Positions 28,319 through 64,000 of a DNA stretch of 64,000 nucleotides are shown here, piece by piece (the stretch's first letter is position 1; the number at the start of each line of letters is the position of its first letter). Position numbers and translations under genes: made by a program. Origin of the DNA: Candidatus Staskawiczbacteria bacterium (GTDB lineage: Bacteria; Patescibacteriota; Minisyncoccia; Minisyncoccales; Staskawiczbacteraceae); NCBI GenBank assembly GCA_903845295.1, contig CAIMWV010000015.1, positions 6,354 through 70,353 on the forward strand, given 5' to 3'. The notes under the pieces are model-generated. The model was not told the origin of the DNA. It saw only the letters and a program-made list of their open reading frames with translations, and ran no database searches.

Positions 28319-28347
28319 AATATAGCAAAAGCCAACATATGTGTCAA
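28319..28347 (-). promoter_or_regulatory. Promoter of the nusA leader
   Basis: Minus strand TTGACA (28347-28342), 17 nt, TATATT (28324-28319). Confidence 0.5.
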
Positions 28348-28415
28348 GAAACAAAAAAGAGCCCGACAGATATCGAGCCCCTGCTAAAACGTGCAATGAG
28401 CAAATGGTGCAACTT

Positions 28416-28571: not shown

Positions 28572-28604
28572 GGCCTCCGCCTCCTTTCCGGCTCTTTAGA
28601 AGCC

Positions 28605-48493: not shown

Positions 48494-48617
48494 AAAACAA
48501 TTACCAATTAGCGCTAGATGTGGACAACTTGAGCGTTTTTTTATTTCCCTGCGAAAACGTTAAACATTAAGAATTGGATTGGCCCTTGTTTTTGAATTTA
48601 TGTTATAATAAATAAAT

Positions 48618-49226
48618 ATGTTAAATATCAGTTTCTATTTATATATATTTGTTCTGATTATATGGCTTATCTATATATTTAATTCTTTCTATCAAAATTA
48701 CCGGATGAAAAAATTTATACCCAGCAAAACCATAGAAGTTTTAACTATTCCTTTTTACATTTTTTCTACATTATCTTTTTATCTCTTAACCAGAAACATT
48801 ATAATTATTATTTCAACTGGCAATAGAGAAAAATTTATAAATTTAAATTCGTTATGGCCGATAATTTTAGTTATCACAGGAATAGTATTTTGCTCCTGTT
48901 CTGCAATTCTTTATATCTATGCCAATTTTTTCGAAAAATCTTTTCCAAGCTGCATAACCGCGGAAAATAACAAGCCGCTTGAAGGATTATATAAATATAT
49001 CCGCCATCCTTCATATTACATATTCTTTTTTATAACTTTCGGGAATGCTCTCTGCTTATTAAGTCTGCCACTTTTCATATTGGCATGCATAAATCATATT
49101 TGTCTTTATTTTTATTATATGATTGAAGAAAATCAAATCAGGAAAACAAATGCTGATTATGATAAATATTTGAAGATAAGCAACAGGTTCTTGCCGAATT
49201 TTTTTAAAATGCCGGCTATCAACTGA
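48618..49226 (+). CDS. Membrane methyltransferase-like protein (ICMT/PEMT-type fold)
   Basis: 202 aa with 4-5 TM helices. GLYKYIRHPSYY motif as in isoprenylcysteine carboxyl / phospholipid methyltransferases. Confidence 0.5.
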   Translation: MLNISFYLYIFVLIIWLIYIFNSFYQNYRMKKFIPSKTIEVLTIPFYIFSTLSFYLLTRNIIIIISTGNREKFINLNSLWPIILVITGIVFCSCSAILYIYANFFEKSFPSCITAENNKPLEGLYKYIRHPSYYIFFFITFGNALCLLSLPLFILACINHICLYFYYMIEENQIRKTNADYDKYLKISNRFLPNFFKMPAIN

Positions 49227-49278
49227 TAAAGATTAATGCTTTATCTATTATTTGTGATATAATTATTATAATTAAAAC

Positions 49279-50025
49279 ATGATTAAAAAGACTGAGGCAA
49301 TGTTCTTTCGGGTTTCAGAAAATATATTCATAAAATATTATAAGGCCGGTGAAAAATTAAAAGATTTTTTATCGCCAATTTTTAATCCGGAAAATAAGGA
49401 AAGAGGCCTTGTAATTTCGGGTACCACACTGCTTATTGTTGGAATAGCAGCAGCAGTATTAGCCGGAGTAGGGTATGTATCCGTAAAAAATACCGTAGCA
49501 GGAGCGGAAGCAGATTTTTTTACCGCTTTAGTTTTAGGAATAGGTTTAGTGTTTGTGATGCTTGGCCAAGCAGTTTTTGGTTTTGCCGCCGGTTTTTTAA
49601 CAAGAGTTTTAGACCCACAGTTCATAAATGGAGCCATTACTAGCAATCAGGTATTCTCAACTGTATGGGGAAACGTCAGGGATTTAGCTAATATGATTAT
49701 TGTTATGGGATTTGTTGTTGTGGGAATAGCCACCGCATTAAGAATCCAGGAATATGCGGCAAAGAAAATTTTATGGCGGTTAATATTAATTGCTCTTGTA
49801 ATTAATTTTTCCGGCCTGTTTTGCGGGCTGATAATTGATTTATCAAATATAACAATGAACGGACTGCTTGGCGGCAGCAGTGCCCAAACAAACATTGAGT
49901 CGATATCTCTTGCTATTACAAATTATGTAAATAATGCGCTTGGAGAAACCGCAAAATTAATGCCCGGTGGCGGCATAATCTCAACTCCCCCAGCTCCTGC
50001 AGCTCCTGCAGCTGTTGGCAGATAA
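49279..50025 (+). CDS. Polytopic membrane protein, possible N-terminal part of a VirB6/TrbL-like channel component
   Basis: 248 aa with 5-6 TM helices. The Pro/Ala tail STPPAPAAPAAV resembles the N-terminal linker of 51397..52911. Confidence 0.5.
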   Translation: MIKKTEAMFFRVSENIFIKYYKAGEKLKDFLSPIFNPENKERGLVISGTTLLIVGIAAAVLAGVGYVSVKNTVAGAEADFFTALVLGIGLVFVMLGQAVFGFAAGFLTRVLDPQFINGAITSNQVFSTVWGNVRDLANMIIVMGFVVVGIATALRIQEYAAKKILWRLILIALVINFSGLFCGLIIDLSNITMNGLLGGSSAQTNIESISLAITNYVNNALGETAKLMPGGGIISTPPAPAAPAAVGR

Positions 50026-50146
50026 ACTCCTGCCTCGCCGCCCCAATAACGCTAAAGCAGAAGCTCTTAATATTTCTGACTAGATAAATTTATTAAAGAG
50101 TTTAGAAAAAGAATAAAAATATTTTTATCAATAATTTTAAACCATT

Positions 50147-51244
50147 ATGACAGTAAAAAATAATTTAATTTGGGTAGGGGCGTCTCTTGCGGTGTTTTTG
50201 TTTTTAATTAGTTTCGGAAATAAAACTTTACTTTATATGAATACGGCGGATTTAATTGGCAGCCTTGGCAGCCAATGCGCTCCTAATTGGCAGTGTAACT
50301 CTTGGACTGAATGCAACTCTCGGGGCGAGGCATACAGGCAGTGTGCAGATATAAATAATTGTATGAGGGCTGTTTCTCCCGATACCAGTCGTGATTGTGT
50401 GCTGACGCCGGAAATGCTGACTTCTTATCAGAATGATTACGAAAATAAACTTTTAAATATCGGAGGCGATACCTCTAAAATAAAAGTTGATTTTACCGGG
50501 GGAATAGGGGAACAAAATAGCGGGGACTGCCAGTATATTAACGACACAAGCCCAATTTGCTATTATTTCAATCTTCCCGGCAATATGTCTATCAAATTTT
50601 CGAACAGCCAGGCATCAGGAGATTCGTCCCAGGGGGAAATGACCTTTATAAACGGAGATACAAATAAAAAACTGATGACAGGGATAGGATCTTTAAAAGA
50701 CCCTCTTAATAAAATTTCGGCGGGATTTTATGTTTATCCGACTAATTCCGAAAATATTTTTTATATTGTCGGCGATAAAACAATAGAAAATAATATTATG
50801 TCCTGGAAAGAAATTTATTTTGATGTGTCAAAACAGGATATCGTTTTTTATGCAGATGCCGGCGTGAATTTAGGAGGGACAAACGTAAGTTTCGTTAATA
50901 TTAAAAAAGGCGCCCAGAAAGAATATGATATTAATGTAAATCTGCCCAGTTCTTGCACTTTTCCTGAAAAATATGGATTAAACGGCATTTTTGTGAACAA
51001 CGTAAATAATAGCGTATTTCCCAATTCCCTGTCATTTGATTGCAATCAAGACGGACAAAGCTATTCAGACTCAATTGAGGTCGAACCGCTTGCGCTAAGC
51101 AGCGATTTTAAAACGCTCCATTTATTTGTGCATAAATTTAAAAACGACGGCCTTAAAAATAATGGCCCTGAAAAAGATGGCACAGATTGGCATTACTTAT
51201 TTGGTTTAACTGGCGGCACAATAACATTTGCGCCAAATAATTAA
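50147..51244 (+). CDS. Secreted hypothetical protein with N-terminal Cys-rich motif
   Basis: 365 aa with a signal/TM anchor, then CAPNWQCNSWTECNSRGEAYRQCADINNC. Confidence 0.55.
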   Translation: MTVKNNLIWVGASLAVFLFLISFGNKTLLYMNTADLIGSLGSQCAPNWQCNSWTECNSRGEAYRQCADINNCMRAVSPDTSRDCVLTPEMLTSYQNDYENKLLNIGGDTSKIKVDFTGGIGEQNSGDCQYINDTSPICYYFNLPGNMSIKFSNSQASGDSSQGEMTFINGDTNKKLMTGIGSLKDPLNKISAGFYVYPTNSENIFYIVGDKTIENNIMSWKEIYFDVSKQDIVFYADAGVNLGGTNVSFVNIKKGAQKEYDINVNLPSSCTFPEKYGLNGIFVNNVNNSVFPNSLSFDCNQDGQSYSDSIEVEPLALSSDFKTLHLFVHKFKNDGLKNNGPEKDGTDWHYLFGLTGGTITFAPNN

Positions 51245-51396
51245 ATAAAAAAACCTTTAAGTTTTTGGGCAAGTGACGATTAACGATAGCCGCCGGAATA
51301 TGACCTGCGAAAAATTTTATAGAAAAAAAGATAAAATATTCTTAATAATGCGATCAATAAAAAAATCAAAAAAGATTTAAACAATAATCTTAACTT

Positions 51397-52911
51397 ATGC
51401 CAAAATTTTTTTCAATTTTAAAAAACAAAAAACTAATATTTTTTGTTTTTCTAATTTTTACATTTTTAGCACTAACTTTTCCTGAAATAACTATCGCTGT
51501 TAACGGTGGACCCGTAATGAATGGTTTGTTACCATCGACCCCAATATCAGCACCAACTCCCGCACCGGTTACAGCCGCCGTTAAAGAGCCTGGGAAATTT
51601 TTGTTAAATTGCATCTTATTTTTTTGCATGTTGGTATTTGCGGCATACACGTTTGCGATTATGGCTGTTTTGATTGCTGCAAGATATGCCGTACTTGCCG
51701 CGCTTTATATACTTTCGCCATTGGCTTTTGCTTTTTGGATTTTTCCTGCGTCCAGATTAAAGAAATACCACTCACAATGGTGGGACGAATTTTTAAAATG
51801 GTGCTTTGTGGGAGTTTTTGCCTCATTTTTTATTTATTTGGCAACAAAAGTAATAGATGCCTCAACCAAAAGCGGGAAGTTAGACACTTTCCCTCTTTTC
51901 GTTGCTTTTATCTTTATTATAGTCGGTTACAAGATGATCCGCAAAACTGGTGGAATAGCAGATATAGCAGCTGGCGCAATTAAAGGAGTTGCAACCGGAG
52001 GAGCTGGGCTTGCTATGGGAGCAGTGGTAGGGGCGGGAGGGATAGCAATGAATAGATTAGGTAGGACAGCAACCGGACAAAGAGTAAAAGAGGCAGTTAG
52101 CGACAGAGTGGCCAGAATTCAAGAAACTCTTGGCGCGCCAGAGGGCCATGCAGCCCAGCAAAGAACGGCCAGGGAGCGTGCTGCAGCAACACAAGTAAAT
52201 GCTCTGCGAACATCTTCAGCCCAAGGAGACAGAAATAGATACGAACAACTTGTCAGAACCGGCCAAGGAGCAATGGGAGCAGCAGCTGTTACTACAGCCA
52301 ATGAGCACGGCGACCTTGGCAGATTATATGATCTGAATACCGATAATGGACTTAACCAAGCTAATAATCGCGTGGCCCATGCTCAAGCATTCGGACATGA
52401 AAGAGGTGAATTTGAAAGAAGAAATTATCAATTAAGAGGTGTTAACGAAGGAGCAATAGGCGCTTACGCAACTGCTCATCCCAATGTTGACCCAGCCAAT
52501 ATTCCAGCTACATTAAGGAGAGAACAGCTCGCAGAAAACCTCCCAACAATGACTGCTCCCGAATTTGGAAGAATTAATCATGAGGATCTTGGCGGTCCTG
52601 GCGGCTATCAATTTGTAAGAGATAACTTTACTCCCCGCATGATAGATCGAATAGGAGTTACAGGAAACGCTGATTTGATAGGTGCTGTAAATGCCCATGC
52701 GCCACAAATGATAACCGAAGCTGCTGCTGCAGGTGCTAATGGCAACCAAGGAGAATTTAACAGATTAAATGAAAGAATAATTGCGATTGCAAGATTGCCC
52801 GGAGCTCATCTGCCAAATAATCCTCCTCCGCAAACAAATGCATATCCGCCAAACAATGTTAATATACCTCCTCCAGGTCCAGGTCCAAACCCATATATTC
52901 CTCTGCCATAA
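51397..52911 (+). CDS. TrbL/VirB6-like polytopic membrane protein with Gly-rich loop and long soluble Pro-rich tail
   Basis: 504 aa with a signal segment and about 5 TM helices (LAALYILSPLAFAFWIFP..., WCFVGVFASFFIYL...). GGIADIAAGAIKGVATGGAGLAMGAVVGAGG. Confidence 0.55.
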   Translation: MPKFFSILKNKKLIFFVFLIFTFLALTFPEITIAVNGGPVMNGLLPSTPISAPTPAPVTAAVKEPGKFLLNCILFFCMLVFAAYTFAIMAVLIAARYAVLAALYILSPLAFAFWIFPASRLKKYHSQWWDEFLKWCFVGVFASFFIYLATKVIDASTKSGKLDTFPLFVAFIFIIVGYKMIRKTGGIADIAAGAIKGVATGGAGLAMGAVVGAGGIAMNRLGRTATGQRVKEAVSDRVARIQETLGAPEGHAAQQRTARERAAATQVNALRTSSAQGDRNRYEQLVRTGQGAMGAAAVTTANEHGDLGRLYDLNTDNGLNQANNRVAHAQAFGHERGEFERRNYQLRGVNEGAIGAYATAHPNVDPANIPATLRREQLAENLPTMTAPEFGRINHEDLGGPGGYQFVRDNFTPRMIDRIGVTGNADLIGAVNAHAPQMITEAAAAGANGNQGEFNRLNERIIAIARLPGAHLPNNPPPQTNAYPPNNVNIPPPGPGPNPYIPLP

Positions 52912-52932
52912 TTATAAAAAATTTATAAAAAA

Positions 52933-53577
52933 ATGAATGAACAAAAAAATAATGTACGCGTGTTATTTACGGTCAAAGCAAATTCTGGTCTTAATGACAT
53001 AATAAAAAAATTTGGCTTGGAAGAAACCATGGAAGAGTCTGTGAAAAGAATGCAAAAAGGAAAACTTGCAAAAATGGTTGTTATTGACCATTTATCCAAA
53101 GATTTTGCATTAGGGACTATATCAGAAAAAGATTTGGTCAGCTCTTTAAAAGATGATTTAGAAATTTCTCAACAAACAGCAGGGCAAATTTCAAAAGATA
53201 TTTTGACTAATATTATTCCTTTTTTGGAAAAGGTTCCCGAAGAAAAATTGAAGGACCCTGCTTTTGTGGAAGAACTTGTTAAAAAAGTTTTGGGAGAAAC
53301 AATGAAAGAAAAACCTTTGATTTCTAAAATAGAAACTCCCGGGCAAGAACCCTTCGGCACGGCTCAGGGCAAGAAAGATATAGATCTTTTTCCTAAAATT
53401 AAACCCGATGAAAATATTACCAAACCAACAGAAAAAAATACTTCAGTGCCAGAGAAAGAGCTGGGTGGAGGAACCGCACTTCAATCAAAAAAAATTAAAA
53501 AACCGCTTCCAAAAGAATCTGCGCCCCAAATAAAACAAACAAGGGGACCAGACAATTATCGCGAACCGATTGGGTAA
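52933..53577 (+). CDS. Hypothetical protein, 214 aa (contains an in-frame G+C-rich mini-element)
   Basis: ATG ORF. The segment EPFGTAQGK is encoded by 53350-53370. Confidence 0.55.
   Translation: MNEQKNNVRVLFTVKANSGLNDIIKKFGLEETMEESVKRMQKGKLAKMVVIDHLSKDFALGTISEKDLVSSLKDDLEISQQTAGQISKDILTNIIPFLEKVPEEKLKDPAFVEELVKKVLGETMKEKPLISKIETPGQEPFGTAQGKKDIDLFPKIKPDENITKPTEKNTSVPEKELGGGTALQSKKIKKPLPKESAPQIKQTRGPDNYREPIG
53350..53370. repeat. G+C-rich mini-element copy (inside 52933..53577, third reading frame)
   Basis: cccttcggcacggctcagggc. Confidence 0.6.
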
Positions 53578-53590
53578 AAAATTGCAATAG

Positions 53591-53624
53591 AAAATGGCAA
53601 ACACAATCGTGTTTGCCATTTTTG
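53591..53624. terminator. Bidirectional terminator shared by 52933..53577 and the SPFH gene
   Basis: aaa-atggcaaacac-aatc-gtgtttgccat-tttt, a perfect 11-bp stem. Confidence 0.7.
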
Positions 53625-53653
53625 ATTCCATTTGCTGGAACCCTTTCGCTCCC

Positions 53654-54808
53654 TTAGTTGGGCGTCCTCTTCAAGGGATCCCATTTAGGATATTTGCCAT
53701 TTCTGGCAAAGTGGTCCGCAGCAGCTTGCTCATACGGCGCTGGATCCACCGGCATATTGGATCTTCCTCGCTGACGAGGTCCTTGGCCGCCTTGCTGTCC
53801 GTCGCGATTTCCACCGCCGCGCTTGCCTTGACCGCCGACTAAGATGCCTGCGCCTCCGCCACCGCCGCCGACGACCGCAGTGGTTGCATTTTCGAGGCCG
53901 TGAACCTCTAGATTTTGACCTCCGGCCTTCAAATAAGCCCTCTTGGCCAATTCGTCCTGCTTCTTGGTAATTTGTTCCGGAGAAGCGCCAGGATGGGCCT
54001 TTTTCCAGGCTTCTAATGCCTGGTTTGTATCATCAAGCCGAGTGGCGCTTGCCGCTGCCTCATGTACGGCGGCCTCTTTTTCCTTCTGGGCCTTGTATGG
54101 TGCCAGTGTGGTGTCCCGCCATCCTGGCGGGGGATCAATGCTGGCCAGTTCCACTGACTCAACCTCAATCCCGTACGTATCCCTCAGCTCAACAATCACC
54201 GAGGGCTTTCCACTTTCGCGGGGGGCATTCATTGCCTCCCACAAACGCTGCCCGAACACTTTCACGGCGCTTCCCGCTGGCACATTCTGGCCAGTAATTT
54301 GCTCCCAAGAAACCTCCGTGAAAACTTGACGCAAAGCTGAGATGACTAGGGTGATCGTCGTGACGTACCAATCGCTGGCCACAAAGAAGGCCTTGGATGG
54401 ATCCGCCATCCGTGCATGCGTCGCGATCACCCCCGTCAAGGGCAACCCATGAGAATCCTCTTCATCCTTGAAGGGGATAGCATATGGGTATCTGGTGCTC
54501 TTAAAGCTGGTGATGTTGGAATCGTCATGATCCTCAACGGTGACGTCGCCGTCATCTTTCACCACACATTTTTTGAACACCATCTTCCTGGAGTAAAGAG
54601 TGTACACTCCTGGCCACCCCAGCCAGTGAAGACCGGGTCCGAGTGTTATGTGGTAGCAGCCCAGCCGCATTACCACCTTGTACCAACCCTGCTCCACCTT
54701 GGTCCAAAGGAAATTGCGCTTGGCAAGCCCGAGGACGGCATAGAAGCCAAGCAAAGCCACCAGCACGATTGCGGCCAGCGACACCAGAAACTCCTCAAAA
54801 AAGTCCAT
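53654..54808 (-). CDS. SPFH/band-7 (flotillin/prohibitin-like) membrane protein with Gly/Arg/Gln-rich tail; G+C-rich cassette 3
   Basis: 384 aa. ATG with GGAGG 6 nt upstream. N-terminal TM helix, a central region with an SPFH-like pattern, coiled coil KAQKEKEAAVHEAAA, tail GGGGGGAG...GKRGGGNRDGQQGGQGPRQRGR. Family call is from pattern memory only. Confidence 0.65.
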   Translation of the reverse strand: MDFFEEFLVSLAAIVLVALLGFYAVLGLAKRNFLWTKVEQGWYKVVMRLGCYHITLGPGLHWLGWPGVYTLYSRKMVFKKCVVKDDGDVTVEDHDDSNITSFKSTRYPYAIPFKDEEDSHGLPLTGVIATHARMADPSKAFFVASDWYVTTITLVISALRQVFTEVSWEQITGQNVPAGSAVKVFGQRLWEAMNAPRESGKPSVIVELRDTYGIEVESVELASIDPPPGWRDTTLAPYKAQKEKEAAVHEAAASATRLDDTNQALEAWKKAHPGASPEQITKKQDELAKRAYLKAGGQNLEVHGLENATTAVVGGGGGGAGILVGGQGKRGGGNRDGQQGGQGPRQRGRSNMPVDPAPYEQAAADHFARNGKYPKWDPLKRTPN

Positions 54809-54971
54809 GTTCCACCTCCAAAAAAAGAGTTAAGCTTCGAATCGTTGATGGTCTGCGCAGGACAATCCCGCGCTAAACCCGTCGCGTAGTAATTTCTGCT
54901 GAAAAAAATCTAGGCAAATCACTACGTGACAGGTTTAAAAGACCATTTTTCTCAATGTTCTTGTTATATAA

Positions 54972-55000
54972 AGCATAGCATATTATTTTAATCTTGTCAA
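54972..55000 (-). promoter_or_regulatory. Candidate promoter of cassette 3
   Basis: Minus strand TTGACA (55000-54995), 17 nt, TATGCT (54977-54972), with a roughly 160-nt structured leader. Confidence 0.45.
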
Positions 55001-55048
55001 GATTTAAGCTCTTAAATTACGGCTTCCAATTCTGTGCAATAACCCCTA

Positions 55049-55078
55049 TTGCCTATGCTTTTTTATACGTGATATAAT
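55049..55078 (+). promoter_or_regulatory. Candidate promoter of the PrgI/VirB4 operon
   Basis: TTGCCT, 18 nt, TGaTATAAT (extended -10). Confidence 0.4.
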
Positions 55079-55111
55079 AACAAAATAAGTATAATAAAAA
55101 ATTAACAGAAA

Positions 55112-55201
55112 AAGGTGTTCAGCGGAAATTAGACCAGCAATGTATAAGATATATCAAGGTCTAATTTCCGAAGCAAATCTGCTCGCCTCGCTCGCAGACC
55201 C
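55112..55201 (+). promoter_or_regulatory. Two-hairpin leader RNA motif, copy D (abuts GTG of the PrgI-like gene)
   Basis: cggaaattagacc-agcaatgtataagatatatcaa-ggtctaatttccg, then tctgc-tcgcctcgctc-gcaga, then ccc-GTG. Confidence 0.6.
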
Positions 55202-55609
55202 GTGGAACAATATCCTATACCACAATTTATTGAATCAGAGAGCAAAATTATTTCGTTCATGTCATTTAAACAATTTTTTTACCTTGTGGGAGCCGGGCTC
55301 ATCTGTTTTTTCCTGTATTTTATTTTGCCCCGCGTTCTTTTTTTTATAGTTAGCGCTATAATTTTTCTTGCTGCAATAGTACTCGCCTTCGGAACAATGG
55401 GCGGCACTCCCATACTAAATATAATTTTAGGATCGATTGGTTTTTCAATGGGCGGCAAAGATTATACATGGAAAAAGAAGGAATCCCCCTACCCTTTCAA
55501 ACCGATAAAAAGGACTCAGATTAAAAAAATAGAACAAGGCCCTGTTTTACAGGCCCAAACAAGCCAATTAAAAAGAACGCGCACTGCGATAGAAATGCGC
55601 ACTAAGTAA
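55202..55609 (+). CDS. PrgI/VirB3-like small membrane protein of a type IV secretion system
   Basis: 135 aa. MEQYPIPQFIESESKIISFMSFKQFFYLVGAGLI followed by two TM helices. Located two genes upstream of VirB4. Confidence 0.6.
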   Translation: MEQYPIPQFIESESKIISFMSFKQFFYLVGAGLICFFLYFILPRVLFFIVSAIIFLAAIVLAFGTMGGTPILNIILGSIGFSMGGKDYTWKKKESPYPFKPIKRTQIKKIEQGPVLQAQTSQLKRTRTAIEMRTK

Positions 55610-55627
55610 TTAAAAATTCATAACTAT

Positions 55628-56290
55628 ATGCCAGAATCAGCTACACAAGCATTTTTAGAAGTACAAGACATAAGAGAGGGAATTTTAATTTTAAAAAACA
55701 ACTCTATAAGAGGGATTTTAATGGTCTCTTCTATAAATTTTGCATTGAAATCGGAGGAAGAACAAACAGCCATAATTTTCGCTTTTCAAACTTTTTTAAA
55801 CTCTTTGGATTTTTTCTGCCAGATTGTAATTCAATCGAGAAACATAAACATTACTCCGTATTTAGACGGTTTGAAAGATTTAGAGGAAAAGCAAACTAAC
55901 GAATTATTAAGGAAACAAACATCATCATATAGAGAATTTATAAAAAATATGGTTGTGGGAGACACGGTCATGACAAAAAACTTTTATATTGTCATTCCTT
56001 ATAACCTTATGGAAATTTTCGGAATGAAAGGAGCGGCAAAACAGTTTGGCATTTTTAAAAAAGAATCCGGAGGGCAGCAGGGACAAGCTATGAAAGACGA
56101 TGAATTTCAAAGGGCCAAAACGCAGCTCTGGCAAAGGATGGAATATGCATCAATGGGTTTAAGAAGGTGCGGGTTGGAGGCCGTGCCTTTAACAACGCCG
56201 GAGCTTATCGAACTTTTCTGGTCCATACACCATCCGGATCAGGCAGAAGTTGGATACTATCCGGAGATATTGCCGGAATTGCTCAAATAA
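55628..56290 (+). CDS. Hypothetical T4SS-associated protein, 220 aa
   Basis: ATG ORF between the PrgI-like and VirB4 genes. No family recognised. Confidence 0.55.
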   Translation: MPESATQAFLEVQDIREGILILKNNSIRGILMVSSINFALKSEEEQTAIIFAFQTFLNSLDFFCQIVIQSRNINITPYLDGLKDLEEKQTNELLRKQTSSYREFIKNMVVGDTVMTKNFYIVIPYNLMEIFGMKGAAKQFGIFKKESGGQQGQAMKDDEFQRAKTQLWQRMEYASMGLRRCGLEAVPLTTPELIELFWSIHHPDQAEVGYYPEILPELLK

Positions 56291-56306
56291 TAATGAACTC
56301 CGTATC

Positions 56307-56406
56307 GTGAAGTTAGAATACAGAATAGAATACAGAATAAAGAACTCTGAATCCAATATTTAAAATTCTATTCAAAATACTATATACTAAATTCAAAATT
56401 ATATTT
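56307..56406 (+). repeat. AT-rich AGAAT-repeat upstream module, copy 2 (abuts virB4 ATG)
   Basis: gtgaagttagaatacagaatagaatacagaataaagaactctgaatccaatatttaaaattctattcaaaatactatatactaaattcaaaattatattt-ATG. Confidence 0.6.
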
Positions 56407-58209
56407 ATGCCATCATTTTTAAATAATCTTTTAGGCAAAAAACAAGAAGATCTGACAGAACAAATTTTTCAGGAAGAGGCTTTTGATGTAAGAGATATTA
56501 TAGCTCCGCCATATATCGGAGTAATGCAAGACCATATAAAATTGGGCGAAAGGTTTGCCAAGTCTTTTTTTGTTTTTTCTTATCCCCGATATTTAAATAC
56601 CGGCTGGTTCACGCCTGTCATTGATTTAAATACCCCCATGGATGTTTCATTCTTCATACACCCCGTCAGCAGCGAATTGATTTTAAAAAAATTAAGAAAA
56701 AAAGTTACGGAGGTTTCGTCAGAAATATTAGAAAGAGAAGAAAAGGGATTGATCAGAGATCCCGCCCTGGAAACTGCATATAAAGATATTGAAACCCTTA
56801 GGGACAACTTGATGACGGCCCAAGAAAAGATGTTCAGGCTGGGTATTTATATCACAGTCTATGAAACTTCTGAAAAAGAACTGCGCGATACAGAACTTAC
56901 TTTAAGGTCAATTTTTGAATCCAGGTTAATTTATATAAAACCTGCTCTATTTAAACAAAAAGAGGGATTTATTTCCTGCAATCCTTACGGTATGGACTTG
57001 CTAGAAGTCCATACTCCTATGGATACAGAACCCCTGTCAACTTGTTTCCCTTTCATCTGTTTTGATTTAAGCTCTAATGAAGGAATTTTATATGGCATAA
57101 ACAGGCACAATAATTCTTTGGTTTTATTTGACAGATTCAGCTTGGAAAATGCGAATATGGTGGTTTTTGCAAAATCCGGCGCAGGAAAATCCTTTGCTAT
57201 AAAATTAGAAATTTTAAGATATCTGATGCAGGGAGTCGATTGCATAATTATCGACCCGGAAAACGAATATGAATTTTTAGCGGATGCGGTGGGCGGTTCA
57301 TTTTTAAAAATTTCCTTGACTTCTCCAAACCATTTAAACCCTTTTGATTTACCCCTCCCCGGCCCCGATGATAATCCGGAAGATATTTTACGGTCTAATG
57401 TCATAAACCTGGTCGGGCTTTTAAGAATCATGCTGGGAGGATTAACGCCGGAAGAAGACAGTATTTTAGACGAAGCCCTTACGGAAACTTATGCCGTAAG
57501 GGATATCACCCCGCAATCAGACCCAAAAACCTGGGCAAACAGCACGCCTTTAATGTCTGACTTCCAGGAAATTTTAGAGAGCATGACCGGAACAGAATCT
57601 TTGGTTAATCGCATTAAAAAATTTACCAAAGGGACTTTTTCTGACTTCTTCAACCAGCAGTCAAATATTTCTATGGACAAAAGTTTTGTTGTTTTTGGGA
57701 TAAGAGACATGGAAGAATCTTTAAGGCCTATCGCACTGTACATTGTTATGAGATATATCTGGAATATGGTCAGGTCAAAATTAAAAAAAAGAATTCTGGT
57801 TATTGATGAGGCGTGGTGGCTGATGCAATCAGATGACGGAGCTTCATTCCTTTTTGGCTTGGTAAAAAGAGGCAGAAAATATTGGCTGGGGGTTACAACT
57901 ATTACTCAAGATGTGGGTGATTTTATGAAATCTGATTACGGCAAAGCAATTGTCACAAACTCATCCCTGCAGTTTTTAATGAAACAATCAACTGCTGATA
58001 TTGATTCCGTACAAAAAACTTTTACCTTGACGGAACAAGAAAAAAATCTATTGATTGAAGCGGCGGTCGGAGAAGGGTTATTTTTCGCCGGCAGAAAACA
58101 TGTATATCTGCAGGTGGTTGCCAGTCAGACAGAGAACCAAATAGTTACAACTAATCCTCAAGAAGTTGAACAAAATAGAGAGGAAAAAAGAAACTTAGGG
58201 TCTGTTTAA
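56407..58209 (+). CDS. virB4: VirB4/TraC/TrsE-family type IV secretion ATPase
   Basis: 600 aa. Walker A AKSGAGKSF, Walker B RILVIDEAWWLM. Size and motif order fit VirB4-type ATPases. Confidence 0.9.
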   Translation: MPSFLNNLLGKKQEDLTEQIFQEEAFDVRDIIAPPYIGVMQDHIKLGERFAKSFFVFSYPRYLNTGWFTPVIDLNTPMDVSFFIHPVSSELILKKLRKKVTEVSSEILEREEKGLIRDPALETAYKDIETLRDNLMTAQEKMFRLGIYITVYETSEKELRDTELTLRSIFESRLIYIKPALFKQKEGFISCNPYGMDLLEVHTPMDTEPLSTCFPFICFDLSSNEGILYGINRHNNSLVLFDRFSLENANMVVFAKSGAGKSFAIKLEILRYLMQGVDCIIIDPENEYEFLADAVGGSFLKISLTSPNHLNPFDLPLPGPDDNPEDILRSNVINLVGLLRIMLGGLTPEEDSILDEALTETYAVRDITPQSDPKTWANSTPLMSDFQEILESMTGTESLVNRIKKFTKGTFSDFFNQQSNISMDKSFVVFGIRDMEESLRPIALYIVMRYIWNMVRSKLKKRILVIDEAWWLMQSDDGASFLFGLVKRGRKYWLGVTTITQDVGDFMKSDYGKAIVTNSSLQFLMKQSTADIDSVQKTFTLTEQEKNLLIEAAVGEGLFFAGRKHVYLQVVASQTENQIVTTNPQEVEQNREEKRNLGSV

Positions 58210-58324
58210 GTTTAAATTTTTATAAAAAACGTAAATACTTGGTAAGGAGGCATCCCTGACTAAAAACCGAACTTTTGATTCTGAGGAATTAAATAAATTT
58301 TTTAATTAAGAAGGCAATAAAGCG

Positions 58325-61300
58325 ATGATCTTTTGCAAAAAACTTTTTTTCTTTATTTGTTTGAGCTGCGTTCTTTTGCTAAACGCCAGTTTTGTTTTAG
58401 CGCTCGAGGTTACTTATCCGACTATAAATATTTTTGGCCAAAGTTTTTCATTCAATAATGCCGATGCCACAAGCACTAATGCTCTTGGTAAATTCGTCTG
58501 CTATCTTTTCGGATTAGGAACGGATATAGCTGCTTTCATAGCTGTTGTTGTGATAGCTTGGGGCGGAATTTATTATCTGGTTTCTTATGGAAGGGGAAAA
58601 TTTACAGATGAAGGCAAAGATTGGATAAAAGCCGGAGTTTTAGGGCTTTTAATAGTTGTTTGTGCCTCTTTAATCGCTTATACAATTAATCCGGGCCTAA
58701 ATACTTGCAAGCTCGGAATTCTATCAGTAATCAACTTAACTTCTTCGGTTATTCCTCCTCCACCGCCGAACGTACCTATTACCACCTATAAAGAAATTCC
58801 TATCGGAACTTTAACTGAAGCTCTTTTAACTAGAACAATGGATTGTTATGGTTTTGACCAAAGCGGCAATCCTGTTGATGGAGACCAAGAATCAGACGAT
58901 GGAAAAAACGCGGCTCCAACATATTTAGACCACGACAGGGCAGATTGCCTGGCGCAATTAGTTGACGGCGCTCAAAAAAAATCTCAAATTATTGCCAGTT
59001 TATCAGATGAAATAACCAAATTAATGAATAAGTGCAATTGCCAGACCTATGGCAAATGTGAGAACAGCTGCGGAGGACAATGCGACCAACCAACAACTTG
59101 CCGTGAGCCCCCCGGTTATAAGTGTACCGGTGCATGTGTAGGTATTGCCTGCCAATCTCCGCCATTTTCAACAACCCCGCCGCCGCCGGATTGCTGTCCG
59201 ACAACTTCTGGAGTTATAGACCCAACAACGAATAAACCATTGATAGATCCAACGACAGGTAAAGAATTATCAGTTAAGGGGCAGATTGAACACGGTCCGA
59301 TAAGTGTGGCTATTGATCTTAATGCAGTAGCGGGTGGAGCCGGCGCTGTCACGCTACCACCTACTGCTGCCAGCAGAGAAACTGGCGGACCTTGTAAAAC
59401 TCAAACTGTAGATTATAAAGGATTAGAGGAGCTTAGGTCAGATTATAATAATAATTATGGCTCAATAAAAAATGCAGTTGAAACAACTGCTCGAATAAAT
59501 GGAAAACAAGTGACAATCATTAAAACCGGGAAATGCGGAACGTGTGATTCTACTGCTGCAGATTATGCAACTTGTAAAGATAAATTAGATAAATGCAAAA
59601 AAAACAGCGAATGGGGCAAATTAAAATTAATCGACCAGCTCGCATATTTAAAGGGTAAAATAGACAGTTGGGCAGATGACAGCAAAATTAAAGACGATAA
59701 ACAGGCATTAGACCGGGCGAAGTCTGAGCTAGGCAGCTGTTATTTAGCAATACCCTATATTGACCTTGCCCAAACTTATGAAATTACAAGACAACAAAAT
59801 AAAATTATTCTTAAAGACCCGGAAACATTTTCCGACCCCGTAACCAATAAGCCAATAGATGCATCAAAATATTGCCAGGGGTTCAATTATGATAAATCCA
59901 GCTGTTTTAAAAAATGCAATGACTTGTGCCCCGACACAAGCACCAAGGCGATGGCGTGTTATGCCGGCTGCACCGCTTGTCCTAGCAATTGTTCATCTTG
60001 TGATCCCAATGCAGCAGATTATAATGATTGCATAAACCAAAAACAGGCGTGCGAAAAAAATTTATCTAATTGCCGAAACAAACAAGAAAGATGCATAGAA
60101 AACTGTTATAATTCAAGGCCTTGCCCAAATACATCCGGCGATAACCCTCCTAAAACTTTCGGCGTAACTAAATGCAACCCCAATTCAGCCTGTCAAAGCG
60201 GACAAATTTGCAGTGATAACGGGACTGGCACTACTACTTGTGGTGGTGTTGTAAATAATGGCACCCCTTGTTCTCCGGGCGTAGACACAAGTTGTCCAGG
60301 CGGACAGACGTGCAATCCCAATACCAGCACTTGCGGGAGTGATAATTCTACAGATACTCCTCAAGACTGCATAAGCTCCTGCCAGAACAACTGCTCGGCT
60401 GACTGCTCTAAAAAATATTTGCCGTGTTCTGACGAATATAATTTTTGCCAAAACCAGTGTGAAAATAACGGACAATGTGTTTTAGACAATGCCTCAGATT
60501 GCCTGTTTAATACTGCTAAATTCCAGCAATGCGGGCAAGCGGCGAGCCAAGGTGTTGACCAAGGCAATATAAATTATTGCATTAATAATGCTTATCTGTG
60601 CAAAAACGGGTCTGATGAATATGCCGGCTACTCAGATTGCGTTGATTCGTCTATCAGCGGATGTCCGGCAAATAAATATTCCTCATCTTTTCTTTATGAC
60701 TCCTTTATTAATGATGCTCCGGGCTGTGAAAAATGCCCTTATCCATATGATTCACCCGAACCTGGCACTGCTTGTTACAGCAGTACGGCTAAACCTGGTG
60801 TTTCTTGTCTAAATCTGTGCCCTGAAACTACAAAATGCCCGGCCTCTTCTAAATGTCCCGACTGCTCATGCGACCAAATAGATCAAACCCTTAAATTTTC
60901 TGTACCTAATATATCAACTTCTGATGCGAGCGCAGGGCCGATTAACGCCGGCTATGAGGGTTATAGCACACAAACACAAAAAGTTTCTGCATATCAAATT
61001 GTAGGGCCCCAATGCAACGGATATTCTTATAATGACGACCCATTAACTTTTTATTGCGAAGATGTTGTATGGAATGACCCAGGCAGGGAAGGACTTGGCA
61101 AAACGCCGATAGGGGCAGAAAGAATTTGCTCTAAAGGACAAGATGTGCCGGTCGGACAAACGGTTGACGATGCCGAAAATTGGGCTGACGGATTGATTAA
61201 AAGTGCAGATAAAATGGACCAGGATATACAAAAAGTTCTCACCCAAGCTATAAATATAGGCAATGCTAAGAAGCAAACAAACGGAGTACAGGATTATTGC

Positions 61301-61996
61301 AAATGCGCTGCAAAATTTGATTTAAATTCTCCCCACCCGGCTCCCGAAGTTGCTGGCGGGCCAATCTGCAAAACCGGCTGCCAATACAGCGAAACTCATG
61401 TGCCCGAACAGACACAGGAGGTTCCCGATACAATGGATGATGAGGGAAATGTTATACTTGGATACACAATAACGATACTTGACCATTGGGAATGCGCTTG
61501 CACATTCACGCCTTGCAGCGGAAACCCGTGCCAGCAGATCACAGATTATATATCAATGCTTTGGAATGATTATAGACAACTAAAACTTGATTTTATAGAT
61601 TTTTATACGACTATGCTTGCAGAACCCAGAAGTGATATTATGAAGGAATTGACCTATTCAAGAAAAACAACCAATGATTGCAGTTTAGTAGGCAGCACAA
61701 ATGGTTTATTAAGCGAGAGGCTGTTAAATTGCACAAGGGTTGAAGATGAAATAATCTCTCCTATTAATACGAATAAAATGACAAAAGAAGAATTGGCCGC
61801 CCTTGTCCATATTGACCCCAGCCAAATAGGCATTCCCGGCAATAATACTTTAGACGGTTATTGTTATGGAAAAAAGATGGGCAAGGTTTTAATTCCATCG
61901 GTAGATTTAAATTTAACCGACAATTGGTTCTGCTGCCAGGAATATAGCAAAAACCCAACGACAAACAATAATCCTATCTATAATATACAAAAATAG
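58325..61996 (+). CDS. Giant cysteine-rich surface protein with N-terminal pilin-like module
   Basis: 1223 aa. Signal peptide, ALEVTYP motif, two hydrophobic helices (pilin-like), a PPPPP linker, then about 1000 aa densely populated with Cys (many CxxxC / CxC spacings). Confidence 0.75.
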   Translation: MIFCKKLFFFICLSCVLLLNASFVLALEVTYPTINIFGQSFSFNNADATSTNALGKFVCYLFGLGTDIAAFIAVVVIAWGGIYYLVSYGRGKFTDEGKDWIKAGVLGLLIVVCASLIAYTINPGLNTCKLGILSVINLTSSVIPPPPPNVPITTYKEIPIGTLTEALLTRTMDCYGFDQSGNPVDGDQESDDGKNAAPTYLDHDRADCLAQLVDGAQKKSQIIASLSDEITKLMNKCNCQTYGKCENSCGGQCDQPTTCREPPGYKCTGACVGIACQSPPFSTTPPPPDCCPTTSGVIDPTTNKPLIDPTTGKELSVKGQIEHGPISVAIDLNAVAGGAGAVTLPPTAASRETGGPCKTQTVDYKGLEELRSDYNNNYGSIKNAVETTARINGKQVTIIKTGKCGTCDSTAADYATCKDKLDKCKKNSEWGKLKLIDQLAYLKGKIDSWADDSKIKDDKQALDRAKSELGSCYLAIPYIDLAQTYEITRQQNKIILKDPETFSDPVTNKPIDASKYCQGFNYDKSSCFKKCNDLCPDTSTKAMACYAGCTACPSNCSSCDPNAADYNDCINQKQACEKNLSNCRNKQERCIENCYNSRPCPNTSGDNPPKTFGVTKCNPNSACQSGQICSDNGTGTTTCGGVVNNGTPCSPGVDTSCPGGQTCNPNTSTCGSDNSTDTPQDCISSCQNNCSADCSKKYLPCSDEYNFCQNQCENNGQCVLDNASDCLFNTAKFQQCGQAASQGVDQGNINYCINNAYLCKNGSDEYAGYSDCVDSSISGCPANKYSSSFLYDSFINDAPGCEKCPYPYDSPEPGTACYSSTAKPGVSCLNLCPETTKCPASSKCPDCSCDQIDQTLKFSVPNISTSDASAGPINAGYEGYSTQTQKVSAYQIVGPQCNGYSYNDDPLTFYCEDVVWNDPGREGLGKTPIGAERICSKGQDVPVGQTVDDAENWADGLIKSADKMDQDIQKVLTQAINIGNAKKQTNGVQDYCKCAAKFDLNSPHPAPEVAGGPICKTGCQYSETHVPEQTQEVPDTMDDEGNVILGYTITILDHWECACTFTPCSGNPCQQITDYISMLWNDYRQLKLDFIDFYTTMLAEPRSDIMKELTYSRKTTNDCSLVGSTNGLLSERLLNCTRVEDEIISPINTNKMTKEELAALVHIDPSQIGIPGNNTLDGYCYGKKMGKVLIPSVDLNLTDNWFCCQEYSKNPTTNNNPIYNIQK

Positions 61997-62019
61997 TTTT
62001 TAAATAATAAAAAAAAGAT

Positions 62020-63207
62020 ATGATAAAAAAAACAAAATATAAACATTTTTTATTTAATTGTTCCAAAATTACAAGAAGTGGGGCGACTGTTTGTTTTTTA
62101 GCCTTTTTTGTTATTTTACTTTTTAGGGTCAGCGGTTTTGCACACGCTCTAGAAGTAACATATCCCAACCTTACTGGTTTTGGTTTGCCGCCTTTAAATG
62201 CTAATTCCAGTATAGTTGATTATGTCAAATATTTTTTTGGTGCGGGCGTTTATGTGGCTGGAATTTTAGCTCTTATATCTTTTGCCATAGGCGCCATCGG
62301 ACTGATAAATCCCAGTCCCGAATCTCATAATGAATCAAAAGAAAGGATGAAGGGCGCTGTTTTAGGACTAGTGTTAACGGTTGCTGCTTTTATAATTATG
62401 AGAACAATCAATCCCACGCTCGTCTCGCCCACTTTAACTGGGCTGACGCCAGTTACGCTACCGACGGCAACTAAATCGCCCGGTATTTACTATGACTCAG
62501 ATAGTGGTTGCGGTGCGGGCGGGTCTGAGGTGGGGCCAGATACTGTTCAACAAAATGATTTATCAAATGTTAACCTTCCTGGTAGGGTTATAAATGCTAT
62601 TAGGATTATTAATGACCCGGAAAATAATATTTATTATGGTGTTATTCTTCATGATAGTTATGGACTTGATAAAGGGGGAGCTTGCATCAGACCAATAATA
62701 AAGTCTGACCCGTGCCGGCAACCCAAAGGCTGCTGTGTCCGTGTTGATTCAAGCCCGAATTCAATTGATATTTTTAAAGTAAATAAAAACCCCTCAACCT
62801 CTGGAAATGGCGTAACTTTTTATAGTGAGACATTTGGTAACGCTGGAAGGGGTGGCAAATTCGTAGTGACAAATGAAAAAATACCTTCCAATTATCTGTT
62901 TATTGCGAAGACTGATATGAAATTTGATTATGCGGGCAGCTCAGCAGACCAACCATATAGAGACGCTTATGTTACCTTCGCAGACAGGCCGGGAAGTATG
63001 ATATCAAGCAGCAGTAACTATTTAGTCGCCCTCTATGCCAACGTAAATATGGCGATACATACGGATACCGGGGGCGCTATAGTTCCGAGCCTATTTCCAT
63101 ACTGCCAGACATTTAATGGAGGAACTGTTGAAGAATTAGCTGCACAACCGATTATACTTGAAAATAAAACAATAGATGCTGTTTATATAATTCCCATGAA
63201 ACCATAA
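62020..63207 (+). CDS. Pilin-like N-terminal module fused to a secreted domain (paralog 2)
   Basis: 395 aa. The ALEVTYP motif and helix pair are as in 58325..61996. The C-domain is paralogous to the next gene. Confidence 0.65.
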   Translation: MIKKTKYKHFLFNCSKITRSGATVCFLAFFVILLFRVSGFAHALEVTYPNLTGFGLPPLNANSSIVDYVKYFFGAGVYVAGILALISFAIGAIGLINPSPESHNESKERMKGAVLGLVLTVAAFIIMRTINPTLVSPTLTGLTPVTLPTATKSPGIYYDSDSGCGAGGSEVGPDTVQQNDLSNVNLPGRVINAIRIINDPENNIYYGVILHDSYGLDKGGACIRPIIKSDPCRQPKGCCVRVDSSPNSIDIFKVNKNPSTSGNGVTFYSETFGNAGRGGKFVVTNEKIPSNYLFIAKTDMKFDYAGSSADQPYRDAYVTFADRPGSMISSSSNYLVALYANVNMAIHTDTGGAIVPSLFPYCQTFNGGTVEELAAQPIILENKTIDAVYIIPMKP

Positions 63208-63225
63208 AATCACAATATAAATTTG

Positions 63226-64000
63226 ATGATAAAAAACTTTACCCTGACACAAAAAATTTATGCTGGATTTTTTTTAGTTTTCTTTTTATCCACTGGTTTT
63301 TTTTATTTATCAATAAATAAAGCTTCTGCTTTGGAGGTACAATATCCTGTGCTATCGGGCATAAATTTAAACACTGAGGCAAATCTTACGCTACCCAAAT
63401 ATGTATTATATCTGTTTAATGCTGGGATGTTCCTTGGTTTCTTTTCCGTTTTTATCTCTATAACTATTGCAGGGGCAATGTATTTTTTATCTCCTGTGAG
63501 CGCTGAATTACGGGCTGATGCCAAAGACAGGTTTTTTGGAGCGATGTCGGGGCTGCTTATTTTGGTGCTGACATATTTGATTATAACCACCATAAATCCC
63601 CAGCTTAGCATTTTTAACCCTAATAAACTGCCATCGGCGCCGCCACCGCCAGCAGCAAAAAAAGCTCCTGGTGTTTATTTTTATCAATCTGACTGTTCTG
63701 ACAATAGCATCCAGCCTAATACGTCGAACGTCCCGGACTTTGGCGCGCTCAAAAATAAAATAAATTCGGCGAATATTGTGCAAGATGCAGACAATGGAAT
63801 TTCTTATATATCAATGCTATACAGCAACACTAACCTTTGGGGGCAATGCCAAGAGGTTGACCCGACAATAACAGGCTGCCAGTCTTTAGGTTCTTTCGCA
63901 TCAAAATCTTCCTCGGCTTCTATTTATCAATATGATTTCCATCCTGAAAATAATAATCCTTCCGATGGTGGAGTATATTTTTTCCGCAAATCTTGTTTCA
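63226..64000 (+). CDS. Pilin-like N-terminal module fused to a secreted domain (paralog 3; 3' end outside window)
   Basis: Not in the ORF track because no stop is reached. My manual translation from ATG 63226 is open to the window end: MIKNFTLTQKIYAGFFLVFFLSTGFFYLSINKASALEVQYPVLSG...TINPQLSIFNPNKLPSAPPPPAAKKAPGVYFYQSDC... Confidence 0.65.
   Translation, partial: MIKNFTLTQKIYAGFFLVFFLSTGFFYLSINKASALEVQYPVLSGINLNTEANLTLPKYVLYLFNAGMFLGFFSVFISITIAGAMYFLSPVSAELRADAKDRFFGAMSGLLILVLTYLIITTINPQLSIFNPNKLPSAPPPPAAKKAPGVYFYQSDCSDNSIQPNTSNVPDFGALKNKINSANIVQDADNGISYISMLYSNTNLWGQCQEVDPTITGCQSLGSFASKSSSASIYQYDFHPENNNPSDGGVYFFRKSCF

Follow-up and report, generated by a model that had tools for sequence, protein, structure and literature searches.

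In a 64,000-nucleotide (nt) stretch of a Candidatus Staskawiczbacteria genome (contig CAIMWV010000015.1, positions 6,354 to 70,353; "the window"), a G+C-rich gene of 384 codons lies antisense between two plus-strand units of a type IV secretion system (T4SS)-like locus. An earlier sequence-only reading of the window had taken this gene (53654..54808, minus strand) for a foreign cassette encoding a protein of the SPFH/Band 7 superfamily. We found that it does encode an SPFH protein, that an SPFH-type gene stands in the same slot and orientation in every related locus examined, that members of the gene family are G+C-rich whatever genome hosts them, and that an allele of a more distant locus has replaced the coding body by homologous recombination. 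We consider it probable, with real room for doubt, that the gene specifies a stomatin/QmcA-type SPFH scaffold, a native, long-standing and fast-evolving accessory of the chromosomal T4SS locus in the ultrasmall Staskawiczbacteria-like Patescibacteria.

An antisense SPFH-type gene occupies a conserved slot

Related loci were taken from named genomes (two Candidatus Staskawiczbacteria metagenome-assembled genomes and one labelled Saccharibacteria), from metagenomes (23 loci) and from exact-protein look-ups. About 25 distinct loci resulted, of which approximately 20 were found through the SPFH protein and four (L037 to L040; L numbers are our handles for loci) were chosen by VirB4 alone, at 85-91% identity. 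All of them fall within one clade, in which VirB4 is at least 75% identical.

Gene order was judged in every locus of sufficient length. The 5' part has a KsgA-like methyltransferase and further on a TrbL/VirB6-like protein of ~650 amino acids (aa), a p214-like protein of ~150-310 aa and, on the opposite strand, the SPFH gene. The 3' part continues with PrgI/VirB3-like and TrsD/TraC-like proteins, a VirB4-like ATPase, a protein of ~1000-1300 aa and pilin-like proteins. The slot between the VirB6/TrbL-like plus small-protein unit and the PrgI-TrsD-VirB4 operon was filled by an antisense SPFH-type gene in all of the roughly 25 loci. A foreign cassette dropped into the locus, as the sequence-only reading had it, is at odds with this pattern.

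Slot, orientation and expression signals are conserved despite an extremely variable protein, of which we distinguish three types. Type A is the family of the window protein, with about 50% identity within the type. In some loci type B stands in its place; type B proteins share 38-43% identity among themselves and have no BLAST-detectable similarity to the window protein. Type C is a tandem second SPFH copy in L014 and L019. BLAST links type A to type C (E-values of 1e-22 to 1e-27) and type C to type B (1e-8 to 1e-19), and the type B protein of L037 has a sub-threshold Band_7 match. An AlphaFold2 (AF2) model of type B from seq­uences of seven members had a predicted local distance difference test score (pLDDT) of 41.8, too poor for a fold search. 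All four loci selected by VirB4 have an antisense gene of 384-410 aa in the slot, one of type A (L039) and three of type B.

The signals around the gene were similarly persistent. A near-consensus sigma-70 promoter with extended -10 element, TTGACA-N16/17-TATG(C/A)TATAAT, and a GGAG Shine-Dalgarno sequence lie upstream of it in nearly all related loci. The other loci have a hairpin in the same place of the 5' untranslated region (UTR), different in sequence from locus to locus, and 21 of 23 loci have a strong hairpin just after the SPFH stop codon. The slot also persists in L020, L023 and L027, which have extra genes. In L039, a Parcubacteria groundwater contig, an insertion sequence-type DDE transposase gene and a PDDEXK_3 gene (2518-3921) lie between the SPFH gene and prgI, and the SPFH gene and its orientation are kept.

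High G+C content runs through the gene family

In the window, the SPFH open reading frame (ORF) has a G+C content of 0.556 as compared to 0.396 for the window, placing it in the top 0.7% among windows of 1155 nt. By codon position (GC1/GC2/GC3) its G+C content is 0.61/0.45/0.61, while the other 58 ORFs have about 0.46/0.37/0.37, and the composition shifts abruptly at each end of the gene.

We compared composition in 20 distinct loci with host coding G+C of 0.31-0.42. The GC3 of the SPFH gene was above the pooled GC3 of the other genes in 20/20 (Wilcoxon p=8.8e-5), by 0.197 on average (range 0.084-0.28), and the SPFH gene was the top-GC3 gene in 16. Its GC3 tracked host GC3 (r=0.58), and the offset in the window, +0.245, is ordinary for the family. 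Type B genes had a GC3 of 0.51-0.57 as compared to 0.20-0.32 for their neighbours; the composition of one type C copy (L014) was at or near that of its host. Since the excess is common to homologues, it is no signature of recent acquisition. The sequence-only reading had held that a native AT-rich copy in relatives would speak against a foreign origin; what the relatives have is the same gene, G+C-rich in all.

The codon tables show that A-ending codons are avoided in the SPFH gene, with C and G gaining. The share of AAG is 0.51 as compared to 0.17, whereas TTA is down to 0.09 from 0.37 and ATA to 0.16 from 0.39. Amino-acid composition as the sole cause was rejected, as it accounts for the excess in GC1 (+0.12) and GC2 (+0.05) and not for that in GC3 (+0.20). 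Expression-linked codon bias fared no better, the genes for L19, trigger factor, NusA, IF-2 and ClpP in the window having ordinary GC3 values of 0.31-0.41. We also rejected an overlapping antisense gene: one antisense frame is relatively open (80-188 codons) and never spans the SPFH gene, and such openness is an expected by-product of the depletion of TTA and TCA. Biased gene conversion at a recombination hot spot is compatible with allele shuffling; against it, no genes of the locus are lower in GC3 than those for the p214-like and VirB6-like proteins, which vary just as much.

Four other ORFs of the window are also G+C-rich (up to 0.60, GC3 up to 0.74): 430-1533 (minus), 21508-21858 (minus), 28341-28691 (plus) and 28787-29522 (minus). 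They are presumably the other "cassettes" of the sequence-only reading. None of them matched a Pfam family or had a motif or promoter in common with the SPFH gene.

The coding body was replaced by a distant allele

The close relative used for this comparison was L009 (Ga0209777_10000925), which is 91-95% identical to the window at the nucleotide level over 43.3-48.5 kb and 54.77-61.9 kb. Its VirB4 is 98.8% identical, and its TrsD-like, PrgI-like and M23 peptidase proteins about 99%. Between and beyond these blocks (48500-54765 and 61900-63620), the genes for p202, the VirB6-like protein, p214 and the pilin-like protein are 72-78% identical, the first three of them 74-78%. The body of the SPFH gene is more divergent still, its DNA being essentially unalignable and its protein 48% identical. 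The membrane and surface parts of the T4SS are therefore hypervariable modules.

Nucleotide identity stays at about 93% across the leader and the start of the ORF; the switch is sharp and falls at about 54765, ~14 codons inside the ORF. Promoter, leader and the first residues of the transmembrane (TM) helix therefore belong to the conserved block, together with the PrgI-VirB4 operon to the right, while the SPFH body lies to the left. The closest SPFH alleles (66% identical) were found in the more distant loci L008 and L036, where PrgI and KsgA share no more than about 70% identity with their window counterparts. SPFH identity was uncorrelated with VirB4 identity in a comparison of 105 locus pairs (Spearman rho=0.18).

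These data show that homologous recombination swapped the SPFH body for an allele of a more distant locus of the Candidate Phyla Radiation (CPR), one crossover lying near codon 15. The allele thus came from another CPR bacterium that has this locus and not from an outsider of high G+C content. The suggestion of a foreign coding body wired to host-type upstream sequence was thus right in that ancestry switches near the start of the gene, and wrong about the event, which was allele replacement and no insertion. Here, a sharply bounded G+C-rich island within an AT-rich genome did not attest to recent horizontal acquisition, and it took comparison with relatives to see this; the real replacement was revealed by another signal, the identity breakpoints.

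The product is an SPFH protein with a distinctive tail

Pfam Band_7 (PF01145) matched the protein with E=2e-9 and 38.2 bits against a gathering cut-off of 23.6, covering profile positions 2-174 of 176. It was the sole match in the Pfam scan, which gave no Flot-type C-terminal domain, and the hflK equivalog model TIGR01933 stayed below threshold (15.7 bits, cut-off 159.4). An AF2 model made with 57 homologues in the alignment had a pLDDT of 84.8. When searched against the PDB with Foldseek it gave 62 matches at E<=1e-3, the top ones all SPFH proteins; the matches include human stomatin (9oh9, 3.6e-11), HflK/C, prohibitin (PHB), QmcA, erlin, flotillin and vault. A sequence-profile search of the PDB placed E. 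coli QmcA nearest (8z5g, 7.4e-8), followed by Pyrococcus stomatin. The SPFH identity and the N-terminal TM helix proposed from the sequence were both borne out.

The gene encodes, in order, an N-terminal TM anchor, an SPFH domain, coiled-coil helices, a Gly-rich linker and a C-terminal peptide motif (Table 1). The membrane anchor ahead of the SPFH domain is kept in homologues, and core SPFH positions are strongly conserved within the family. By alignment with the structures of stomatin, HflK/C and QmcA, the two long helices (aa 236-271 and 277-294) may correspond to CC1 and CC2, the helices that make up wall and cap in SPFH cages; in the homologue alignment they are followed by a near-invariant GLENATTAVVGGGG segment. 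What was predicted is the monomer, and it is we who infer an oligomeric ring or cage for this protein.

Among the 57 homologues, the N-terminus is acidic where there is one TM helix and basic where there are two, and K/R residues follow the last TM helix. The window protein begins with the acidic MDFFEE and has KR after its TM helix. By the positive-inside rule, this charge pattern weakly indicates an N-out/C-in topology with a cytoplasmic SPFH domain.

The tail had been described as RGG/Gly-rich. It is Gly-rich and basic; RGG-type triplets occur in isolation only. It terminates in a YPxWDPxKRTPN motif, which the sequence-only reading did not mention. The longer form of this motif, ...FFxxxGxYPxWDPxKRTPN, is present in the window protein and altogether in 14 of 57 type A and five of seven type B proteins, while the remaining family members carry an acidic motif, ...DM(T/S)(D/E)EEL.... 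Types A and B thus have the same two alternative C-terminal motifs on cores that barely align, which suggests a docking function for these peptides.

We found ~60 homologous proteins, 41-66% identical to the window protein. An exhaustive profile search of 1.84 billion cluster representatives returned only 41 clusters at E<=1e-30 and 304 at 1e-10, so that this is a small, specialised family. We regard the gene as representing a new subfamily of a well-known superfamily.

The gene is an autonomous monocistronic unit

The unit consists of a near-consensus promoter, a structured 5' UTR, a strong Shine-Dalgarno sequence, the coding sequence and a terminator. The signals that the sequence-only reading had described, along with the ATG start and the placement antisense between two T4SS-like units, were all recovered from the ORF map, the Pfam matches of the neighbours and the scans listed in Table 1. 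The promoter scored 10/12, with TG preceding the -10 element; the number of such promoter-like sites in the region is within shuffle expectation. The terminator hairpin has 15 pairs with a T-run after and an A-run before it, and because of the A-run it can terminate in both directions. From these signals the unit is predicted to be, and probably is, strongly expressed.

The 157-nt leader folds unusually well, with a minimum free energy (MFE) of -55.7 kcal/mol (z=-5.8). A 15-mer that forms one arm of its long hairpin recurs, as had been noted, in the hairpin at 23154-23191 (2 matches, 0 expected by chance). On the other hand, the supposed likeness of CGCAGACC, at the end of the leader, to a "leader copy D" is at chance level (3 matches, a number equalled in 3/100 shuffles).

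Independent assemblies of other samples gave four contigs that span both ends of the gene and match the window at 99.8-100% identity over 51978-56029. The junctions are therefore real and no assembly chimera.

The public NCBI/ENA annotation (P0001) has a 303-aa product that begins at a Met inside the ORF, without the TM helix or the beginning of the SPFH domain. Truncated annotation of this type accounts for several orthologues being without a precomputed Band_7 match, and this may be a reason why the gene was overlooked.

Proposed function and alternatives

How might an SPFH protein serve a T4SS? SPFH proteins are described as forming membrane-attached rings or domes around client membrane proteins (PMC12624060), as also seen in the solved structures that the model matched. 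We propose that this one would oligomerise to a membrane-attached ring or cage on the cytoplasmic face, which may corral, stabilise or gate the inner-membrane complex of the T4SS (VirB3/VirB6/VirB4-TrsD). The strong dedicated promoter would supply the many copies needed for a cage, and the C-terminal YPxWDPxKRTPN peptide, or its acidic alternative, would dock a partner. We infer this T4SS function because the slot between the VirB6-like and PrgI-TrsD-VirB4 genes is conserved, because the SPFH gene diverges from the prgI-virB4 operon and shares a control region with it, because a strong dedicated promoter suits a high-copy structural protein, and because the SPFH protein co-varies with other variable T4SS parts. 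The suspicion of a link to the secretion apparatus has in this way gained strong guilt-by-association support from conserved position; the link itself is unproven.

Several points weigh against the scaffold. Its coupling to the T4SS is based only on gene position in one clade, where synteny could partly reflect shared descent, and unrelated genes (KsgA, M23 peptidase, ComM-like) are syntenic too. SPFH proteins of Agrobacterium are dispensable for the localisation and function of its T4SS (PMC8656257). No SPFH/Band 7 protein is named in the accessible text and supplements of a survey devoted to the T4SS of Patescibacteria (PMC12102498). Tail class, examined for co-variation with a possible partner, was not associated with the adjacent p214-like protein (p=0.38). 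The SPFH status of type B comes from transitive BLAST links and a sub-threshold Pfam match. Finally, neither recent transfer nor protein composition nor codon bias tied to expression accounts for the G+C excess.

It could be speculated further that the locus has a dedicated, hypervariable SPFH slot, in which the cage would be a specificity or stability module of the T4SS exchanged by homologous recombination. Three barely alignable SPFH core types and two interchangeable docking peptides would belong to this module, and the GC3 excess of about 0.2 would be actively maintained. Such maintenance might come from selection on the mRNA or DNA, for stability or to insulate the two T4SS operons from each other, or else from biased gene conversion coupled with recurrent allele exchange. 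We hold this more elaborate reading only tentatively.

The main rival is a general housekeeping SPFH protein, either a modulator of FtsH or another protease or a membrane-integrity scaffold, like HflK/C or QmcA, whose position would have come down by shared descent within a narrow clade and imply no specific role in secretion. SPFH proteins occur almost universally and many are pleiotropic, the window encodes FtsH (1758-3605), the SPFH gene is transcribed apart from the T4SS operons, and both the other syntenic non-T4SS genes and the Agrobacterium result fit as well. However, the gene lies between T4SS units and not beside the locus, with a divergent control region in common with prgI-virB4, and the slot has been kept through extreme sequence turnover and local rearrangements. 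The SPFH protein varies together with the VirB6-like protein, p214 and the pilin, whereas the housekeeping flanks are 91-95% identical; an SPFH identity of 48% is unexpected for genomes with VirB4 98.8% identical. The protein also falls below the hflK equivalog cut-off and has no NfeD partner. We therefore think a housekeeping role unlikely, although of the alternatives it deserves the most attention.

Another possibility is that the protein is a determinant of strain specificity or self/non-self recognition, such as an exclusion/immunity-like or anti-phage membrane module, under diversifying or frequency-dependent selection and with the SPFH fold as chassis only. The extreme divergence between near-identical backgrounds, the decoupling from VirB4 phylogeny, the three very divergent types in one slot with their interchangeable C-terminal motifs, and the similar variability of the neighbouring VirB6-like protein, p214 and pilins would all agree with this; variability of pilins is discussed in PMC12102498. 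On the other hand, no PADLOC defence model was matched (0 families at E<=0.01), a variable domain that is probably cytoplasmic is hard to square with surface recognition, and the core SPFH positions are strongly conserved. We consider this explanation improbable.

That a foreign cassette of a donor richer in G+C recently entered, in antisense, a T4SS locus until then uninterrupted is very improbable: it has in its favour the composition of the gene and a body whose ancestry differs from the flanks relative to L009, but there is no presence/absence polymorphism among the related loci, the homologues all lie in the same CPR locus type, with G+C-rich copies that track host GC3 and a promoter conserved family-wide, and no donor was found. 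No homologue was detected in 72,556 plasmids (tblastn), 50,697 phage records or IMG/VR contigs, and a viral, plasmid or defence-system reservoir was rejected, as nothing matched save a weak phrog_200. In the window, flanking repeats are short, AT-rich and chance-like, with no direct or inverted repeats that mark an insertion, and no integrase, transposase or other mobility gene adjoins the SPFH gene. Chimeric joining of a G+C-rich fragment of another organism during assembly or binning, which the abrupt composition change at both gene ends might have suggested, can be set aside in view of the four independent assemblies across both junctions and the same architecture in dozens of unrelated metagenomes.

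If the scaffold reading is true, a locus-embedded SPFH protein would add a component that the published survey does not list, and this would be a rare case where the client of an SPFH protein can be guessed from gene position, so that the old debate over what prokaryotic SPFH cages enclose could be put to the test in a defined system. T4SS composition is incompletely catalogued in most Patescibacteria classes. The system is thought to be central to their life as epibionts, and in a cultivated Saccharibacterium several T4SS genes are reported to be essential (summarised in PMC12102498). Broader literature searches gave no report of SPFH proteins in Patescibacteria T4SS, and the conserved genomic coupling appears to be previously unreported. 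The antisense SPFH slot is thus an addition to the described T4SS gene set, at least in this clade. The lineage-wide GC3 excess of a single gene is, in addition, a small and clean puzzle for the evolution of base composition.

Features of the gene and the surrounding locus

Table 1. Coordinates of the SPFH gene, its signals and protein regions, the neighbouring T4SS genes, and divergent slot genes in related loci (window positions unless a locus is named)
Feature	Position	Strand	Basis
Coding sequence, 384-aa SPFH/Band 7 (prokaryotic stomatin/QmcA-like) membrane protein, ATG start	53654..54808	-	ORF, Pfam, AF2, Foldseek
Shine-Dalgarno GGAGG, 6 nt 5' of ATG	54815..54819	-	sequence; GGAG kept upstream of homologues
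Sigma-70-type promoter TTGACA-17-TATGCT, extended -10 TG	54972..55000	-	promoter scan
5'-UTR structure: long hairpin 54937-54874, then G+C-rich hairpin 54873-54855	54855..54937	-	MFE fold
Bidirectional intrinsic terminator, common to SPFH gene and convergent p214 gene	53590..53623		hairpin scan
N-terminal TM helix, aa 3-30	54719..54802	-	AF2 pLDDT >90; charge pattern in 57 homologues
SPFH domain, aa 35-225, N-terminal half more beta-rich than canonical members	54134..54706	-	Pfam, AF2, Foldseek
Two long C-terminal helices, aa 236-271 and 277-294	53927..54103	-	AF2; alignment
Disordered Gly-rich basic linker, aa 300-356	53741..53911	-	pLDDT <50; alignment
C-terminal helix and short linear motif ...DHFARNGKYPKWDPLKRTPN, candidate docking peptide	53657..53737	-	alignment, motif counts
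Allele-replacement boundary	54765		identity to L009 about 0.85-1.0 to right, about 0.3-0.6 to left
Divergent promoter-like site TTGCCT-18-TATAAT, PrgI-TrsD-VirB4 operon	55049-55078	+	promoter scan
PrgI/VirB3-like	55202-55609	+	Pfam; precomputed Pfam on orthologues
TrsD/TraC-like	55628-56290	+	Pfam; precomputed Pfam on orthologues
VirB4-like ATPase	56407-58209	+	Pfam; precomputed Pfam on orthologues
1223-aa protein	58325-61996	+	downstream T4SS unit (55202..63207)
Pilin-like 395-aa protein	62020-63207	+	downstream T4SS unit
Upstream unit: p202 (methyltransferase-like), split TrbL/VirB6-like p248 and p504 enclosing p365, p214	48618..53577	+	Pfam; TrbL_3 on orthologue
Slot genes of divergent SPFH-related types (type C in L014 and L019, type B in L037, L038 and L040)	L014 11301-12470; L019 2694-3845; L030; L025; L037 4364-5542; L038 3989-5191; L040 4483-5715

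The window is chromosomal, carrying 18 tRNA genes and the genes for FtsH, L19, IF-2, RNase Y, ClpP, trigger factor, NusA and PNPase; an Rfam scan at gathering thresholds returned the tRNAs only. Its cumulative GC skew has a minimum near 37 kb, where gene orientation flips. At the right ends of L037 to L040 (window region ~63300-64000), jag (KH/R3H), yidC and rnpA come after the T4SS locus; they are the usual origin-proximal set. This agrees with the published observation that T4SS loci of Patescibacteria are often near the replication origin (PMC12102498).

The unit upstream of the SPFH gene is variable between relatives. Its TrbL/VirB6-like gene (49279-52911), a single ORF of ~650-700 aa in relatives, is split in the window: p248 (49279-50025) corresponds to residues 1-233 and p504 (51397-52911) to residues 223-656 of the 656-aa protein of L009. 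Between the two lies a 365-aa ORF without a Pfam family (50147-51244), whose 62% identical homologue in L020 adjoins an intact TrbL/VirB6-like gene and is not inside it. Over its initial 39 residues, p504 is similar to the beginning of the full-length L020 protein. The p214-like proteins, often less than 30% identical, share the C-terminal ending ...YREPI(G/E) (in the window at 53553-53577), which in most loci (convergent flanks, L005-L032) is a conserved nucleotide block just beyond the terminator.

A leader of ~100 nt is repeated in the window at 4599-4699 (plus), 17986-18086 (minus), 28137-28243 (minus) and 55107-55206 (plus), with a mean column identity of 77%, and L009 has two further copies. 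The copies end at the start codons of rplS (L19), rny (RNase Y), nusA and the prgI-like first gene of the T4SS operon. They contain a hairpin of 9-13 bp with two compensatory double changes between copies (AAATGAGGC/GCCTCATTT vs AAATTAGACC/GGTCTAATTT). No Rfam family matched the leader at gathering thresholds; it is a candidate for a shared regulatory RNA or leader.

Comparison with known systems

Among solved structures, the best sequence-profile matches are of the stomatin type, E. coli QmcA (8z5g) and the stomatin PH1511 of Pyrococcus horikoshii (3bk6). They resemble the window protein in the order of elements (N-terminal TM anchor, SPFH domain, long helices) and in an SPFH domain that is probably cytoplasmic, although only about 15-19% of residues are identical. 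Unlike the QmcA-YbbJ pair, the window gene is monocistronic, with no NfeD/YbbJ match among its neighbours. The protein differs further in the additional beta strands of the N-terminal half, in the long Gly-rich linker, in the C-terminal YPxWDPxKRTPN or acidic motif and in being embedded in a T4SS locus.

The HflK/HflC-FtsH cage (7vhq, 7wi3, 9cz2) matches in fold and in helical wall elements (Foldseek, 3e-10 to 1e-5). The tandem divergent paralogues of some relatives (type A plus type C) are reminiscent of a hetero-oligomer, and FtsH is encoded in the window genome. In contrast to HflK/HflC, the window has a single gene, which does not adjoin ftsH, and the SPFH domain is probably cytoplasmic rather than extracytoplasmic.

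With flotillin-type scaffolds the gene has a concept in common, that of an SPFH scaffold organising or assisting a secretion nanomachine. Described links include S. aureus FloA with the type VII secretion system, H. pylori HP0248 with the cag T4SS, and the T4SS and type VI secretion system of Agrobacterium residing in detergent-resistant membranes (PMC8656257). There the SPFH gene lies apart from the genes of the secretion system and has pleiotropic effects, whereas the window gene is locus-embedded, position-conserved and co-variable with T4SS parts.

The closest setting is that of the Patescibacteria T4SS of the FATA-like mating-pair formation type (MPF-FATA-like; Quinonero-Coronel et al. 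2025, PMC12102498). The repertoire given there comprises VirB4, TrsD, VirB3/PrgI, VirB6, VirB8, VirB1 and VirB2-like pilins, and the SPFH protein showed no homology to a recognised T4SS protein family in Pfam, in this repertoire as far as it is accessible, or in the tblastn search of plasmids. The neighbours of the gene match VirB4, TrsD-like, PrgI/VirB3, VirB6 and the VirB2-like pilin arrays, and the window locus, like those described, is chromosomal, without a relaxase and near yidC/rnpA in the origin region. To this setting the present comparison adds an SPFH-type gene whose position next to virB4/prgI recurs in about 25 distinct loci of one clade.

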